A DNA stretch of 64,000 nt, from NCBI RefSeq assembly GCF_030684315.1, contig NC_081392.1, positions 620,001-684,000 on the forward strand, given 5' to 3'. The position numbers and the translations under genes are program-made. The notes under the pieces were generated by a model. It did no database searches and was not told the DNA's origin. It was given only the letters and a program-made list of their open reading frames with translations. The DNA is from Stegostoma tigrinum. Taxonomy: Eukaryota. This document shows, piece by piece, positions 10,877-63,818 of the stretch. Within the stretch, counting starts at the first letter, position 1. Every line of letters starts with the position of its first letter.

Positions 10877-11173
10877 GGGTTCGTGCTGCGCCGACTGTAG
10901 TCCAGTCTGCAACAGGGGCCACTATTCCACAAGGACAGACTTTCACTTTGACCTGCAGTTTAGACGGAGAGAGCATGGGCAGCTATACTATGCACTGGTA
11001 CCGCCAACAGGGGACAACAATAGAGTGGCTGTGCGATGAATATAAAAGCTGTGCATCGGGTTTAGACGACAGGTTCGAAGTGCAACACCTCTCTGCGAAT
11101 AACCGATTTACCCTGAAGCTGAGCAGTACCCAGTTGGCAGACTCTGCGACCTACTACTGTGCAGCCAGTATGG
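10877..11173 (+). CDS. TRBV: V exon, apparently functional, inverted relative to TRBJ/TRBC
   Basis: Acceptor TTCCAG|GG. Open frame WVRAAPTVVQSATGATIPQGQTFTLTCSLDGESMGSYTMHWYRQQGTTIEWLCDEYKSCASGLDDRFEVQHLSANNRFTLKLSSTQLADSATYYCAASM has canonical Cys23, WYRQ and DSATYYC. Assignment to beta is inferred from linkage and the 23-RSS. Confidence 0.92.
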
Positions 11174-11212
11174 CACAGAAACACAACCCGCCCATAAACT
11201 AATACAAAAACC
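11174..11212 (+). other. 23-spacer RSS of the functional inverted V
   Basis: CACAGAA + exactly 23 nt + consensus ACAAAAACC. Confidence 0.92.
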
Positions 11213-12425
11213 TTCCTGCTATCCCAACACGTACCTAGCTCCACCTGTGACCAGTGCACTCTAGGGAGTTCAGTAATCTAAAGAGATGTTGATATTTGGT
11301 ATGGTAATATGCGAGTTCCGAAAGTTACAAGATACGTTGCAGCCAAACATGGACTCATTGCGGCAAAACAGAGGCCATTCCACCTATCTTGCCCGTGAAA
11401 GCTCTCAGTAGAGCAATCGTTCTATTCCTTGTTCTATGTATAAAGCTCCACAGATTCACCAGGCATTAAGTTTCACGTTGTTATGACTCGCAGTGTGAAA
11501 CCGTTCATCTTCGAATTCGGTCCGCATCTCCCAGGCGAAACTTCACATCAGTATTCCAACATCTCTTCACCACGAGTTAATGGGAATAGTTTTTCTCAGT
11601 CATCCTTCTTTAAACCTAACTGTGTAATTTTCTAACATTGTCCCTTATTTAACCCTCTCCTAACTTCGTCCACCTCTATCAAGCATCCGCACGATCACTT
11701 TGCTCTAAGAACAAACCCAGATTTTTATGTTGCCTGATTTTGGGAAACATTTTGTGTTTGTATTTGTCTGATGCAGTTTTGTGCCACTGTGCTTTATTTG
11801 CAGAGCAGAAGTAGTCGCAGAGTCTGTCCTCTGCGCCTACTGATGGCCCCTCTTGTGTTTCCTACTGTGCGCTGAGCAGAATTGGGCGAGTCTCCTCGTG
11901 GTGGCTGGAATAACTTTACAAAGGTTCAGGATTTCCTCCCTTTTTTGTGCTCAGCACCTCTGTATAAAATCATAAGTTCCAATCCGTAATGTTTTGCCAC
12001 CAAGCCTTAGACGTTTATGCAAAAACGCAGGAAACACGGCGGATGTTTCTAAACCTCACTCAAAAATGCAAATAGAATATGTAAATGACGTTTTATTTGC
12101 AGATCTCAGTTGAGAGCTAGACGTTGCTAAACTGACATTCATAGGCCGTTTTGTTCTTCTGATTTCAGAAGTGGGTTTTTGTACAGTTCGGGATAGTGCA
12201 AAATACAACAGCAATAAATGAAATGCTGCTCACTTGTTTGAGATATTGACCTGGCTATGTTCCAGTACACGATTGGTTGATTCATCTTCAGGCGGAGTTC
12301 GTTCTCAACTCATGCACTTCCGCTCAGTGGGACGTCTTGCCTTCATAACACTCATCTTGGTAACACCAAGTCATTCATCAGCTTTGGGTTGCTTCATTAG
12401 AAGAGCAATAGCTGCCACGTCTGGA

Positions 12426-50296: not shown

Positions 50297-50403
50297 CTTA
50301 GCTTTCCAAGCAAGAAATGACACGAACAATGCATACAAGATGCTTTTGCAGAACAGGATCACATATGTCAATTTTGCTGCTCCCATGCTTTGGAATTTTT
50401 CTT
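50297..50403 (-). CDS. TRBC: TRBC exon 3 (connecting peptide and transmembrane)
   Basis: TTTCACAG|AAG...AAG|GTAAGA, 107 nt. Encodes EEKFQSMGAAKLTYVILFCKSILYALFVSFLAWKAK, with the TCR-beta TM motif YxILxxKxxLY including the CD3-interacting Lys. Confidence 0.95.
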
Positions 50404-51871: not shown

Positions 51872-52213
51872 CAATGCTGATGGTTATATTTGCACTGTGT
51901 GTCTGTTCCTTTTTTGAAGTGTAATGATTCACTTTGCACTCAATAGTTTGAGGCTCGACCAAATCAGCAGCTTGCAATCGTAACCGACTGCTGATGCTGT
52001 AGGATTTTTTCCCATCCTCTGGCTTGGAATTGAGGTCAGTCAGAATCTCTGCATCATTGTCCAGCAAAGGCTTGTTATTAATGATCCAGGTGATCTTGAT
52101 ATTGTCTGGGTAGAAGTTAGATATTAGGCAAACCACAGTTGCCTTCCCCTTCTCATTAATCTCTTCTGGAGAGGGCAGAAACATAGTGATTCTAGGATCT
52201 TTAACAGCGCCTT
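51872..52213 (-). CDS. TRBC: TCR beta constant region exon 1 (Ig C1 domain)
   Basis: Acceptor CCCTCACAG|AAGGC at 52214/52213 and donor G|GTAGGT at 51872/51871. Translation (E)GAVKDPRITMFLPSPEEINEKGKATVVCLISNFYPDNIKITW...SYSISSRLRL...IECKVNHY... has TCR-beta hallmarks (PSxEEI, ATxVCL, FYPD, YSISSRLR). Confidence 0.96.
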
Positions 52214-57530: not shown

Positions 57531-58000
57531 AGTTACTCTTTTGTCCTCAATACATCCTACTTAGTTTATACTTGCAATAATTCACAGTGTATTTCTACCA
57601 ATAGTTGCAGGAAAATTTTGCCTCCTGAATGATGTATATGGTGAGATTTTTCAATTCAACAAGATGCCAGATTAAAAATGCAGCAAAGTTCTCCTGATAA
57701 ATAAAAGGTGTATGTGTGTGTCTCCCTCTGTGTTAGTCATGAAAGGGTAGAGTCTTGCATTGAATAGCATTTAATAGATTGATTGTGAGCAGTAGGAATT
57801 TCAGCGAATAGACTCACCAGTTTACGGCATCTCCACTTGAGGCTGAATGCAACAATAAATATGCTATTCTCAAAGAAAATCATGATTACAAAGCCAGCTT
57901 TAAACTAAGAGCCAAATGATAAATTGAACCCATGCCGCTGCCCAATGGAGATAACTTAGGAACAATTAAAGTCATGCAATGCTTCTAATCCTTCATCTAT

Positions 58001-58076
58001 CTGCAACTACTAACATGCTCTCGGTGCCAAATGTAATAATTATTTGAGCACAGTGCTACAGGATGATGTTAAAACA
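58001..58076 (-). pseudogene. TRBJ: TRBJ pseudogene (QIIITFGTESMLVVA), donor lost
   Basis: J body 58001-58048 reads FGTE and ends G|ATAGAT instead of G|GT. RSS is CACAGTG (58049-58055) + 12 nt + weak nonamer GTTAAAACA. Confidence 0.72.
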
Positions 58077-59095
58077 GTCAACTATTTAAAATACTGTCTT
58101 CAGAAAAGATTCTTAAATGATAGACTTACATCCTATTAAACTTAATTTAAAGATGGTCAGAAAATACACTACAACATCACATTTTGCATTTCATATAAGG
58201 TATTGAATTTCAATAAATAAGGGATGCTCCACAGCAATCTTGACAGCCAACAGTTAACAACCATACACCTAAGCGTATTGAAATCTTAAAGAGTTGGTCA
58301 AACTAAGTGGATAATGTGGTATGGAAATTTAGGGGCTATTTTCCAGAATTGAGTATCTTGGCAGTTGAGAACATAGCCTCAAAAGGTGGAGAACTCAAAA
58401 TTGAGCAAACTCACCCTGAACAGACAAAGACATGGGGATGGGGGTAATGAGGGAAATTGCAAATTTGGATTGTAGTTCAACTTCAAGAATTCTGGAGGAA
58501 CATCATAACATTGAGTTGAGGAAATGTAAAACTTTCTACAGCAGGGAATACCTGAGATGTAAAACTTCGCACTTAAAATGAAAGCAGATAATGAGAGGAC
58601 ATAGGAATAGAAGGATAGGTTGATAAAGTGAGATAATAAAAAAAACCAGGAGGATGTGCATCTCGAGGATTGTGTTCAGTTTGGCATGACATGTTTCACC
58701 AATTTCTGGAAATGAATAATCCACAAGATCTATAATCCATCTTTGGGGAAGTGAGCAAACATCTTGAAACTTCCTTTTTAACAATGCTCTTAATATCCCC
58801 AAAATAATGGACTCCAGCAGTTAACAGGGCAGATCGCCACCAACTTCTCAAGGACAAGTAGCTCTGGCTGATAAATGTTAATTTTTCCAGAGATCCTTGC
58901 AACAGGCAAACAATCAAAAATGCTCTTTCCATTATTCATATCAAAGTCACATATTAATACTTCCAATGAATTTTAAACTTGATATTGCCGGCCAGAAATA
59001 TTTGTCTTAGAAAAACAGCAGAATGCTTAACTTCCAATTCCCTTACGTATTTGAAAAACAAAAAGCATTGCCACATTTTTTAATTTGCAACTCAC

Positions 59096-59155
59096 CCAAA
59101 ATGGTCAGTTTAGACCCTTCGCGAAAGAAATAAGCATAGTTTCCAGAGCACAGTG
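59096..59155 (-). pseudogene. TRBJ: TRBJ pseudogene/ORF (SGNYAYFFREGSKLTIL) with RSS disrupted by a CR1
   Basis: J body 59096-59148 is open but reads FREG instead of FGXG. Donor G|GTGAG is intact. Heptamer CACAGTG is at 59149-59155, but no nonamer follows at 12 nt because a CR1 starts in the spacer. Confidence 0.88.
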
Positions 59156-59163
59156 TTTCATTC

Positions 59164-59789
59164 ATTTTTAGCTTTCATTATTAGAAGGATTGAGTTCAAG
59201 AGCTGTGAAGTTATGCTCCAACTTTACAAAAGCCCAGTTCGGCCACATCTGGAGTATTGTGTCCAGTTCTGGTCACCTCATTACAGGAAAGATGTGGAAG
59301 CATTGGAAAAGGTGCAGAGGAGATTTACCAGGATGTTACCTGGAATGGAGAGAAGATCTTACAAGGAAAGGTGGAGAGAGCTAAGGCTTTTCTCTTTAGA
59401 ACAATGAAGGATGAGAGGTGACTTCATAGAGGTGTACAAAATGATCAGAGGTATAGATAGAGTAGACAACCAGAGACATTTTCTTAGGGTCGAGGTAGCT
59501 CTAGGGTAGGGGGTAGGGGACATAGTTTTAAGTGAAAGGAGGTAGATATAGGGGAGATGTCAGAGGTAGGATCTTTACTCAAGGAGTGGTAAGGATGTGG
59601 AATGCTTTTCCGGAGAGGGCAGTGGAGTCGGCCTCATTAGGGGCATTTGGGCTATTAGCTAGGCATGTGGATGATAGCGTAAGGTAACAGCGGAGGTTAG
59701 GTAGACCTTAGGTCTTGGTTAAAAGTTTGGCATAACATTGTGGGCCGAAGGGCCTGTACTCTGCTGTATTGTTCTATGTTCAATGTTCT
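59164..59789 (+). mobile_element. 5'-truncated CR1 inserted in a J RSS spacer
   Basis: ORF 59153-59407 contains VRPHLEYCVQFWSPHYRKD; TTCTAT-type tail ends at ~59790. Confidence 0.92.
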
Positions 59790-60084
59790 ATTCTGATTAC
59801 AAAACTGTTTCAGCTTCCAAAAAATTGGGGAATTTTGGATTCATAATAAAATTAACTTTTTGATAGCTCTAAAAACCCATACAGGAAAAAAAGCTTTCTT
59901 TAAAATAGCTTTCCTTTTATATAATTCTACAATCAATGTTGACCCTTCTCTGTCTTTCAGATCTGATCCATGTCCTAAATGCATTGAATGCAAAAGGTAT
60001 TTCAGCAAAGAAATTAATATCTCAACTCTCTTTCGTAGCAATTTTGACAACACACATTTTCCAAGTGAACCCAACATTTGTTAC

Positions 60085-60162
60085 TTGTTACAATCAATTT
60101 AGAGCCACTTCAAAAATAATATTGAGTTCCAGAACACAGTGTGAAACCCTTTTCAGAAAACA
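60085..60162 (-). pseudogene. TRBJ: TRBJ pseudogene with in-frame stop (SGTQYYF*SGSKLIVT) and 12-RSS
   Basis: J body 60085-60134 has TGA at the first Gly of FGXG; donor A|GTAAC. RSS is CACAGTG (60135-60141) + 12 nt + CAGAAAACA (60154-60162). Confidence 0.85.
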
Positions 60163-62609
60163 TTACAAGACAAAGTGTTTTTTTTAGCCAGTCTTGTGAT
60201 TGGCCATTGTTAACTTGAATGATTGTTTATTTCATCTCATTAAGTTAATTTTAATCCACCGCCACATTAAAAAGATAATAATTATAAAGCAGGAAAGGAG
60301 ATCTATCAGTCAATAAATCTTCTAAAGACACAAGCAACTAATTTTACTCAACTGTCTTCTTTCTGCATTGCCTTGTAAATATTTTTCAATAAATCATTTT
60401 TATGCCCAGGTTCCATTAAGCAACATTAAGCACCACAACACATTCCATATCAATTCAATGTCCTCCATGAGAAATGACTCTGCTAGGTCTTTTATCAATT
60501 AGCGCAAAATCAGTATCATTGGTCACTGGCCATTCTGCCATAGTAAGCTTTCTGGTTGTTCATGCAAGATCTTAATTTGTTTTGAAAATGTTGATTAAAC
60601 CCCCCCAGTTGTCCCTTACTGATCTGTAGAGAATTATAGCAAATTTCAGATTCACACAGTGTCTCATGTCTGGCCCCATTTTAGTAAATCAATACTGTTC
60701 CATATCCAAGGCTTGAAAAACAATCTAATGCATTTTGTTCAAAAGTGAACACATTTCTTCAACTGTGACCCAACCACTGATTCCTAAAAGTTGACCAAAA
60801 TTTATTTTCTTAACTCATCTTAAACTCTTAATGAGTGACTTTCTGCACCCTCAACTCTTCCTCCCAGATATTTTGAGTATTTAGGAACATCATTGTCCCT
60901 CCATCACAGTCCTATGTTCTCTTGAAATTGCAATTGTACATACAAGTTAGACAAATCAAACTTTTGTATACTAGGCAATTATCACCTATCAATTTCTGCC
61001 TGGTCATTGAACCCTTTTTAAGAAATAATGGAAATTCCAGAAAGATTTGGGAACCTCACTCCAGCTATCATTAGCATTATTTTCATGTATTGGCAGCAGC
61101 AGTATTAAACTACAGGTGTTGAGTTGATAAGAAATATTTCACCACAGTTTCTTGACACAACCTTACACAGTTGGATCATAAATTCTGAGCCTTTAATTCT
61201 CCAGATACACCTAAATAAAGTCATTTGTTCAATTAACTATTGTATTGCATTCATTCATTCTTCCATATCTACATTTTTCTTTCCATCTGTCGCTTTGCAT
61301 TTCTGGCTGTCCACATTGATCTTCATCTACCGCCACCCAGACTCACCCCAACATTTAGTTATTTTGTTTGCTGCTTCTTTAATGTAACAATTATTTGTCT
61401 TCCTGATTTCCTGATTTCCTCACTTTCTCCCAACTGAAGAGAGCAACTGTTTCACAGTTTCAATGCTTCTTGAGACTAAAAAGCAATAATTTACTCAAGA
61501 CTGTTAACTTATTGCCATCACTAATGTATGATAATTGGGTACTTCCTACTTCTACATCGTCGTGTTACAAAACAAATAATCTAGTGTTCTGCCAATTTGA
61601 ACAGCATCTCCCATTATTATTTGATGTTAGTCTTCTTGAAGTTGACTTCAAACATTTGCAATACCATCTATCCACCTGCAGACCTGTTAACCCTGCTAAT
61701 TCTAGAATATTTTTTCTCAGAATTCTTCATAACTTCTAATTTAATTCTACACTCAAGGTTAATCAGGTAACCTTGATTCCATCACACAAAAAATGTCCAA
61801 CTTGCATAAAACCATTAGGACTGACCCTTCTCCAAAATGTACTGGCTGCATTTTCCCAACCACTCTATACTTAACAACAGTACCAAAATGTAACATAAGT
61901 AAATAGATATACAAATATGCAAGTGATTATACAGATTTCTAGACATGCATAAAAAGGAAACAGAAAGAGAGATTTGTAGCTAGTGGACAAACAGATACAT
62001 AGAGGATCAAACGAATAATGGATATTTGAACATTTATATGCTCACAAACTCATTAAAAATAATCAAATTTATCTCATACCCACAGTACGAAGTATCAGCA
62101 AAACACAGGACTAGATGTTTCTATTAAAATATTTCGCCACTCTCTTTTACAGTCCCTTCCTAATCTATTAAAGATTTTAGATGAAAGGGGATGAATAGAG
62201 TAATAAAAATATCCACAACAGGAACCGGCCCCCCCATCATTCAGGTCCATGTCAATGTCTCCTGCAACTCTCCTTATGCCATTCTACTACAATATGTCTC
62301 CGTTCCTTTCTCCTTCAAGAATGTATCCAGTTTCCACCTTAACTGCACCTTAAATGCATCAATACTGTTCACTTCAAAATGTTTGATAGGATAGCTAGCC
62401 TTAATGTTTACAACAGGTCTTTGGTGAAGCCTCTCCTGAATTTCTGATTGGTTTTATTACCAGTTATTTTATATTTATAGCCTCTGAACATGGTCTCAAC
62501 AGCAAGTCAAAGTTAAACTATTTTGAAACTCCTTTCATCATCTGAAAAAAGCTGTAGGCTTACTCCTCACCTTGCTATTTTCCACAAAGTGAACCCACAT
62601 AGTTGAGTG

Positions 62610-62819
62610 ATAATGGGAATGGCAGATGCTGGAGAATCCAAGATAGCAAAGTGTGGAGCTGGATGAACAGCAGGCCAAGCAGCATCTCAGGAGCACAAAA
62701 GCTGATGTTTCGGGTCTAGACCCTTCATCAGAGAGGGTCTAGGCCCAAAACGTCAGCTTTTGTGCTCCTGAGATGCTGCTTGGCCTGCTGTGTTCATCCA
62801 GCTCCGCACTTTGTTATCT
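62610..62819. mobile_element. Palindromic Penelope-derived short element with target-site duplication
   Basis: ~85-bp inverted arms (62641-62819). Flanking direct repeat CACATAGTTGAGTG at 62596-62609 and 62820-62833. Minus-strand core CTGATGAAGGGTCTAGACCCGAAA at 62708-62731. Confidence 0.85.
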
Positions 62820-62834
62820 CACATAGTTGAGTGT

Positions 62835-63160: not shown

Positions 63161-63746
63161 TTACCAGTTCAGCTGCAGCCAATGTTAACCTTTGTTATGT
63201 TTAAAAATTTATCCAATGTCTCTACACTGGCACAGTTAATTAAAATTACAATATTTAAAAGACATTTAGACTGGTACATGGGTCGGAAGGGTTTTGAAGG
63301 ATATGGACCAAATGTAGGTAAATAGAACTAGTTCAATTTTGGATATCTGGTTGGCATGGACAAGTTGGGTCAAAGGTCTATTTTTATACTGTTTGATTCT
63401 ATAACTTTAAATATTGTATATTTACTAGAACTGCAATTAGTCCAGTTGAATATGATACTTTTTTGTTGTATTGCCTTGCATTCTTGCTCAACATTCAGAG
63501 ACCAAATTCAATAATTCTGTTGTGCCTATGTTATCTCTATTTCTGCTTATGTTAGGGATCTTCAGTTATGTTGTCTCAAGGCAATGAATTAACACATTTC
63601 CTCAAGGGCAATGAATTAACACATCTTCCACTGTAAAGATCATACTTATTTTACCAAGTTCCTGTGTTTCAACTCCCTCAACCAAACCCTGCATAAAATT
63701 ATTAATTTAAACAACTTTCTCGAGCACAGGGAATATAATCACTTAC

Positions 63747-63790
63747 CGAAAATGACCAGCTTCGTCCCATTTCCAAAATAAGCTTCGTTA
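63747..63790 (-). CDS. TRBJ: TCR beta J segment, intact (NEAYFGNGTKLVIF)
   Basis: FGXG motif and donor G|GTAAGT (63746-63741). Phase is compatible with TRBC exon 1. Confidence 0.95.
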
Positions 63791-63818
63791 CACAGTGGTA
63801 CCAAGCTGCAGCAAAACC
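63791..63818 (+). other. 12-spacer RSS of the intact J
   Basis: CACAGTG + 12 nt (GTACCAAGCTGC) + AGCAAAACC (7/9 to ACAAAAACC). Confidence 0.9.

Follow-up and report, generated by a model that had tools for sequence, protein, structure and literature searches.

At the locus examined here, a T-cell receptor beta (TCR-beta) J segment carries a perfect heptamer at its coding border, and a nonamer-like sequence is found only beyond a retrotransposon; the question is whether this element was inserted into the spacer of a 12-RSS, and whether the insertion put the J out of use or befell a J that was already dead. The window, i.e. the whole stretch of DNA that was analysed, is 64,000 nt long, and positions given without a contig name refer to it. 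A first-pass annotation made from the letters of the window had proposed that a CR1 LINE separated heptamer from nonamer and thereby switched the J off; the TCR-beta identity of the locus, the age of the insertion and its sharing with a relative were not in that reading and were added by the present analysis. The split J and its insert consist of the following parts.

59096..59148, minus strand: TRBJ coding segment, 53 nt, SGNYAYFFREGSKLTIL, with FREG where FGXG is expected
59090..59095, minus strand: splice donor GTGAGT of the split J, intact
59149..59155, plus strand: RSS heptamer CACAGTG of the split J, perfect
59156..59163, plus strand: heptamer-side part of the spacer, 8 nt, in the left copy of the target repeat
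59164..59167, plus strand: four putative extra nucleotides at the 5' junction, without LINE homology
59168..59790, plus strand: 5'-truncated CR1-like LINE (end of ORF2, 3' UTR and tail), antisense to the TCR unit
59770..59790, plus strand: LINE tail, three 7-nt repeat units
59784..59793, plus strand: right copy of the target repeat, overlapping the tail, with the exact 4-nt core at 59790-59793
59794..59797, plus strand: nonamer-side part of the spacer, TGAT, 4 nt
59798..59806, plus strand: orphaned nonamer TACAAAACT

The identity of the locus was determined by a scan of 304 kb, which showed two D-J-C clusters in opposed orientation, and V genes with 23-RSS both between the clusters and outside them. 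Of the minus-strand cluster, the J-C part falls inside the window. The D, flanked by a 12-RSS and a 23-RSS, is about 2.1 kb past the window end, and the split J sits between this D and the TRBC exon on the same strand. The other elements of the cluster are as follows.

50297..50403, minus strand: TRBC transmembrane exon, open frame
51872..52213, minus strand: TRBC Ig exon, open frame (Pfam C1-set, E 3e-17)
58001..58076, minus strand: downstream neighbour J (TRBJ_14 position) with 12-RSS, carrying FGTE, K>M and donor GT>AT
60085..60162, minus strand: upstream neighbour J (TRBJ_12 position) with 12-RSS, with a stop codon in the FGXG glycine and a weak donor
61495..61545, minus strand: decayed J remnant (TRBJ_10 position), RSS not recognised, upper coordinate approximate
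63747..63818, minus strand: intact J (TRBJ_09 position) with 12-RSS, spliced to C in a relative

The C exon of this cluster is 48-50% identical to chains named TCR beta from nurse shark and epaulette shark, 63% identical to a Chiloscyllium plagiosum model and 55% identical to the C of the other cluster, which in turn is 77% identical to a whale-shark model. Judged by these matches, the locus is TCR-beta in a carpet-shark-like genome. The other cluster lies on the plus strand (C51:757048-769822), back to back with the window cluster and 71 kb away; of its seven Js, the final one has a stop codon ahead of the donor. On a different large contig (C59:6154580-6191831), a third TRB D-J-C cluster was found together with V genes, and its C resembles published nurse-shark TCR-beta chains and the whale-shark model; since the table for the bamboo shark C. 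punctatum has two clusters on one scaffold, this suggests that TRB occupies two places in the present genome.

Within the window, 57990-61550 holds three adjacent Js that are transcribed in the bamboo shark and are all broken here, together with the decayed remnant; a remnant at the J11 position was sought at 60900-61300 and was not recognised there. The window cluster may rest on one or two Js. The first J of the cluster (HCNFGPGTKLTVL, at about 1000-1070, C51:685009-685060) has an intact frame and donor and is without a clear 12-RSS. Beyond the C exons, two convergent V segments with 23-RSS lie about 600 bp apart, of which the one at 10954-11212 (plus strand) is open with a Pfam V-set match and the one at 11753-12200 (minus strand) looks frameshifted. 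A high-copy short repeat, with many copies in the 304 kb, forms an inverted pair between two Js at 62609-62820 (179 bp, 88% self-complementary), and a 27-bp tandem duplication is present at 63575-63629, in the intron right after the intact J.

In the split J, the heptamer lies at the coding border, a GT donor is present in J phase, and FREG is the one visible coding lesion, frame, heptamer and donor being whole. The heptamer and the G-to-R change in FGXG had both been read correctly in the first-pass annotation, as had ATTC at 59790-59793, TGAT at 59794-59797 and the nonamer-like 9-mer at 59798-59806. Of the features expected of a functional TRBJ, the FGXG motif and a nonamer at 12 (+/-1) nt from the heptamer are both missing: the distance from heptamer to nonamer is now 642 bp, the 9-mer at 12 nt in the present allele scores -11.6 bits by the local J-beta nonamer matrix described below, and no nonamer-like site, none with an A tract, was found at 11-13 or 22-24 nt from the heptamer. 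RAG pairs a 12-RSS with a 23-RSS of fixed geometry; with heptamer and nonamer 642 bp apart, it cannot use this J as a 12-RSS, so the J is a pseudo-segment.

The next 257 bp after the heptamer were used as the query against the own genome, and the 40 that were scored of 4469 candidates were 91-94% identical, the site itself aside. Aligned with the 29 best other copies, the insert is homologous from 59168 to about 59790 (84-88%). The family is dispersed and high-copy, and a longer copy (L039) carries a reverse transcriptase domain upstream (Pfam RVT_1, E 1.7e-21). The sister copies reach further 5' and stop at the same tail, which gives the element a truncated 5' end and an intact 3' end; the tail is made of short tandem repeats and not of poly-A, its 7-nt units being present in 27 of the 29 copies. 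The element is a putative member of the CR1 clade, judged by the C-terminal motif of its ORF2 and by its tail. Alignment with the close copies starts at 59168 in 27 of 29, at 59169 in one and at 59164 in one, and the bases at 59164-59167, which mismatch those of untruncated copies at the same place, are best read as extra nucleotides. The earlier claim of about 630 bp of LINE after the heptamer therefore stands as to a real insert with an RT-bearing sister copy, and is corrected as to the start of the homology, which is 59168 and not 59164.

The ATTC repeat that had been described at the two ends is present, yet it is only part of a longer imperfect repeat (59154-59163 versus 59784-59793), which is exact over 4 nt, identical at 8 of 10 positions in its extended form and overlaps the tail. 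Matches of 4-5 nt are common by chance, and most sister copies have 4-5 nt common to both junction regions. Comparable junctions occur in some sister copies: of 25 with the 5' end in view, L017, L019, L031, L032 and L040 have 6-10 nt in common near their two ends.

Among the direct repeats of at least 3 nt between the two junction zones, there are two of 4 nt, both of which give an excision of 630 bp and a spacer of 12 nt, and six of 3 nt, which give spacers of 6 to 17 nt. The two 4-nt repeats are parts of the same imperfect 10-nt repeat in the 630-bp register, and its match level of 8/10 is reached by 0.09% of 10-mers in 304 kb. Removal of 630 bp thus rebuilds a 12-nt spacer followed by the nonamer, as had been claimed, and the ancestral spacer letters are ambiguous because any 630-bp excision gives 12 nt. 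For the scoring of nonamers, a local matrix was used in place of the RIC score; it was built from 15 other J-beta RSS of the own genome, hand-picked by eye from three clusters with decayed Js included, and it left out four further J-like segments without a clear RSS. The 9-mer at 59798-59806 scores 5.8 bits, against a leave-one-out median of 4.9 for the 15 other J-beta nonamers; 5.8 bits is reached by 0.32% of random 9-mers, and the 9-mer at 59798 is the best of the 21 start positions after the tail. AAAAC at nonamer positions 4-8 is shared by the orphaned nonamer and 8 of the 15 others. An equal score occurs somewhere in 3.9% of random 13-position windows and in 2 of 27 sister-copy flanks (two of 29 copies, without a tail, were dropped), so that the 9-mer by itself is only suggestive. 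The case for the split spacer rests on the 9-mer, the repeat register and the bamboo-shark spacing together, and by this combined evidence the 12-nt register appears well supported.

According to Supplementary Table 3 of PMC10322711, C. punctatum has the same arrangement of two opposed D-J-C clusters, with V genes in the interval and on the outer sides, and each of its TRBJ_12, TRBJ_13 and TRBJ_14 is given there as 'F, transcribed functional element', in a table without usage frequency. By order, spacing and length, and from coordinates only, the split J corresponds to TRBJ_13 of the D2-J-C2 cluster as its positional ortholog. The donor-to-donor spacings here and there (bp, bamboo-shark values from the coordinates in PMC10322711) are 216/221, 568/543, 1212/1692, 263/257, 378/378 and 1493/3927 in the first cluster and 1263/1252, 2252/2383, 1410/2822, 989/369 and 1095/1373 in the second, with close agreement at 1263/1252, 216/221, 568/543, 263/257 and 378/378. 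The interval from the split J to the preceding J is 989 bp here and 369 bp between J12 and J13 in the bamboo shark, by the coordinates of PMC10322711; the excess here is 620 bp, against an insert of 630 bp, and with 630 bp removed the interval becomes 359 bp, leaving a residual of 10 bp. The RSS offsets of -53 and -56 in the same table differ by 3, as do the J lengths of 50 and 53 nt here. The two species are therefore alike in the two-cluster layout, the J order, similar spacing and consistent J lengths, and unlike in that J12, J13 and J14, listed as transcribed and functional there, are all broken here. The first-pass annotation had named an orthologous empty site as a check; by its coordinates, this bamboo-shark interval has no room for the insert. 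As the deviation exceeds 250 bp in four of the 11 intervals compared (1212/1692, 1493/3927, 1410/2822 and 1095/1373), the spacing supports the empty state and does not prove it.

Other sources of an empty or intact counterpart gave the following. When the J flank was searched as DNA against the own genome, only the site itself came up, self-BLAST over 304 kb gave no duplicate of the flanks, and no close copy of the split J was seen among the Js of the other two TRB clusters. At the protein level, no intact ortholog was found among 27 of 32 distinct homologous proteins (26 motif-scanned, one read; five teleost proteins were left out).

When the LINE copy is compared with the column majority of the 29 copies nearest to it, 54 of 610 sites differ (8.9%), with 12/253 in the part used to choose the copies and 42/357 in the rest. 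The insertion is thus old by comparison of its letters, being 5-9% diverged from its sister copies. Four of the 14 listed runs were compared, three of them from one relative (organism B, two studies) and one from the same species; X8 and X12-X14 (share 0.00-0.01) were left out. Organism B differs from the window by 6-10% over six listed pieces, i.e. it is about 92% alike, and its runs contain spliced joints, with the RNA status marked as guess or unknown. In two of the three organism-B runs, a single contig covers the J, the heptamer and 48 nt of the LINE; these contigs have 41 differences and no gaps over 472 nt, and 45 differences and 4 gaps over 590 nt, and forcing the empty-site sequence on them costs 35 more mismatches in 52 nt. 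Since the 5' junction is common to organism B, the insertion predates the split from this relative, and for the same reason organism B provides no empty site. The 3' junction is not bridged in organism B, which there has 14 nt inside the LINE and 269 letters uncovered. Run X3, from the same species, bridges both junctions without a difference, reaching 31 and 39 nt into the LINE; it belongs to the study that also supplied the best-matching runs, and is possibly source data and not independent. No RNA run of the own species was among those listed, which speaks neither for nor against use of the J.

The same runs were used to judge whether the split J is in use. In organism B, splicing connects the J at 63747-63790 with the C exon at a depth of 728 and 27, so the cluster is expressed through another J in the relative; in run X5, an intron contig ends beside the donor of this J. 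At the split J, organism-B contigs pass the donor unbroken at a depth of 21 and 5.7, neighbouring intron contigs having 20 and 5.3, and the stop-codon J at 60085-60134 is likewise crossed unbroken in run X5. This hints at little or no use of the split J in organism B, with the limit that contigs drop rare variants and that 15 of 2671 spliced joints were listed, so that low use could escape. In run X7, a C-exon contig continues for 48 letters that match nothing in the compared stretch and may be the first J (HCNFGPGTKLTVL).

The insert, its ends, the J and the cluster are direct observations. The reading that accounts for them best, with a probability of about 0.8, is that target-primed reverse transcription placed a 5'-truncated CR1-like LINE in the 12-nt spacer of a TCR-beta J before the split from the relative that is about 92% alike, and that the J is now a pseudo-segment whose loss was close to neutral. 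The bases targeted, where the heptamer ends and the spacer starts, seem to resemble the 7-nt tail repeat of the LINE, which could have let the RNA tail anneal at a nick there and start reverse transcription. This would have ended after about 620 nt, the 5' end would have been joined with four extra bases, as far as one old copy can tell, and a target repeat of 4-10 bp would have been left behind. The loss may have been nearly neutral in that other Js still serve the cluster, the genome has two further TRB D-J-C clusters, and point changes put both flanking Js out of action.

For the order of the lesions, the LINE as the first hit and G>R as a later neutral change is somewhat favoured. A Poisson model, crude and with 20-40 constrained sites set by the author's choice and a neutral divergence of 4.7-8.9%, gave 0.49-0.80 for this order and 0.20-0.51 for the reverse, in which the J was already dead or barely used, by G>R or by relaxed selection on the 3' J block, and the LINE came as a neutral passenger. 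This second order, which contests the order only and which we regard as a real though lesser prospect, draws on the neighbours, broken by point lesions (a stop codon with a weak donor in one, three changes including GT>AT in the other) with a third J a remnant, and on the density of repeats: at least 10 repeat blocks in 13.9 kb, as counted by local self-comparison, imply a 6-8% chance of a neutral hit on one of 5-7 spacers, and repeats amount to 3634 bp in the window cluster versus 796 bp in the other cluster on the same contig. Had a point lesion come first, the heptamer, the donor and the other conserved codons would have to have stayed unhit over at least 5-9% divergence. With both flanking Js carrying point lesions, a LINE that switched the J off is only modestly favoured over one that landed in a dead J; of the first-pass proposal, the LINE in the 12-RSS spacer and the lack of a usable nonamer in the present allele hold, while causation is not established, given the neighbours, the chance of a neutral hit and the range of the model. 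Whichever order applied, selection on the 3' J block was weak in this lineage.

The remaining alternatives touch the spacer, the use of the J and the primer. That the 12-nt reconstruction is coincidental, a target-site deletion having removed the genuine nonamer with the end of the spacer, and the 9-mer being an A-rich chance match, is rather improbable: the frequency of equal scores in random windows and sister flanks, the weakness of a 4-nt repeat of a kind seen in most sister copies and the 10-bp residual against the bamboo-shark spacing speak for it, and it would leave unexplained that both 4-nt repeats and the 8/10 repeat fall in a single register giving 12 nt, exactly where the best 9-mer of 21 starts. 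That some low-level use of the split J persists, by way of the perfect heptamer alone or of a cryptic nonamer within the LINE, is very unlikely; the intact heptamer, frame and donor would permit it and contigs cannot reveal rare transcripts, while the score of -11.6 bits at 12 nt, the lack of an A tract at 11-13 or 22-24 nt and the unbroken contigs of the relative at intron depth speak against it, as does FREG, which is likely to disturb the fold. A germline RAG nick at the heptamer as the primer is hardly credible. The insert lies within 20 nt of the RAG cut site, and shark germ cells reportedly rearrange Ig genes (PMC2193156). RAG nicks the plus strand between 59148 and 59149, and the 3'-OH so formed would prime a LINE in the opposite orientation with the junction at the coding border, whereas the junctions observed lie within the spacer and nothing is missing from the coding end; this origin was rejected on the geometry of orientation and junction position. 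A further idea, that the LINE struck first and, inserted in antisense, contributed through silencing or altered RAG access to the shutdown of both flanking Js, one retrotransposition thus pruning three adjacent TCR-beta Js, with heptamer and T-rich spacer sites perhaps favoured as CR1 targets because they mimic the tail repeat, is unlikely and is offered as speculation.

With the LINE insertion into the 12-nt spacer as the preferred reading, the split J is a real and tidy molecular fossil, yet an ordinary kind of gene loss, the neighbouring segments having decayed too. It is a clean, datable case in which a retroelement disrupted the 12/23 geometry of a V(D)J signal and both motifs can still be read. 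With related carpet-shark genomes, it could serve as a presence/absence phylogenetic marker and would allow a direct test of whether J decay is begun by insertions or precedes them. Its bearing on shark immunity is small: about 20 Js were seen across the three TRB clusters, and this one belongs to a block that was already in decay.

Among titles and abstract starts of the open-licence literature, with subscription journals and IMGT tables outside this scope, no described case of a LINE inside a J spacer was found; the available parts of PMC11754216, PMC5931798 and PMC3747384 contain nothing on the split J, and the available part of PMC12227049 is without term matches. Pseudo-segments of Ig and TCR loci with damaged RSS are known, e.g. 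the human VH pseudogenes as described in the part of PMC2212390 consulted, which resemble the present case in an altered spacer length or in a nonamer lost by truncation in the spacer, with one VH having an Alu in its coding part; they differ in being V segments changed by truncation or drift, and that part describes no LINE between an intact heptamer and an intact nonamer. LINE-linked losses in receptor loci are known for IgD in opossum and rabbit (PMC12269197, in part), where, as here, LINEs are found where a receptor part vanished and cause is hard to separate from consequence, and where, unlike here, whole constant exons and not a 12-bp signal were affected. LINE integrants with microhomology are known for zebrafish ZfL2, and extra nucleotides at the 5' junction were reported for about half of its integrants in DT40 cells (PMC4760211, in part); those are cell-culture data on other LINEs, whereas the junction type here is deduced from one old copy, and the two are alike in the 5' extra nucleotides and a short stagger of about 5 bp.
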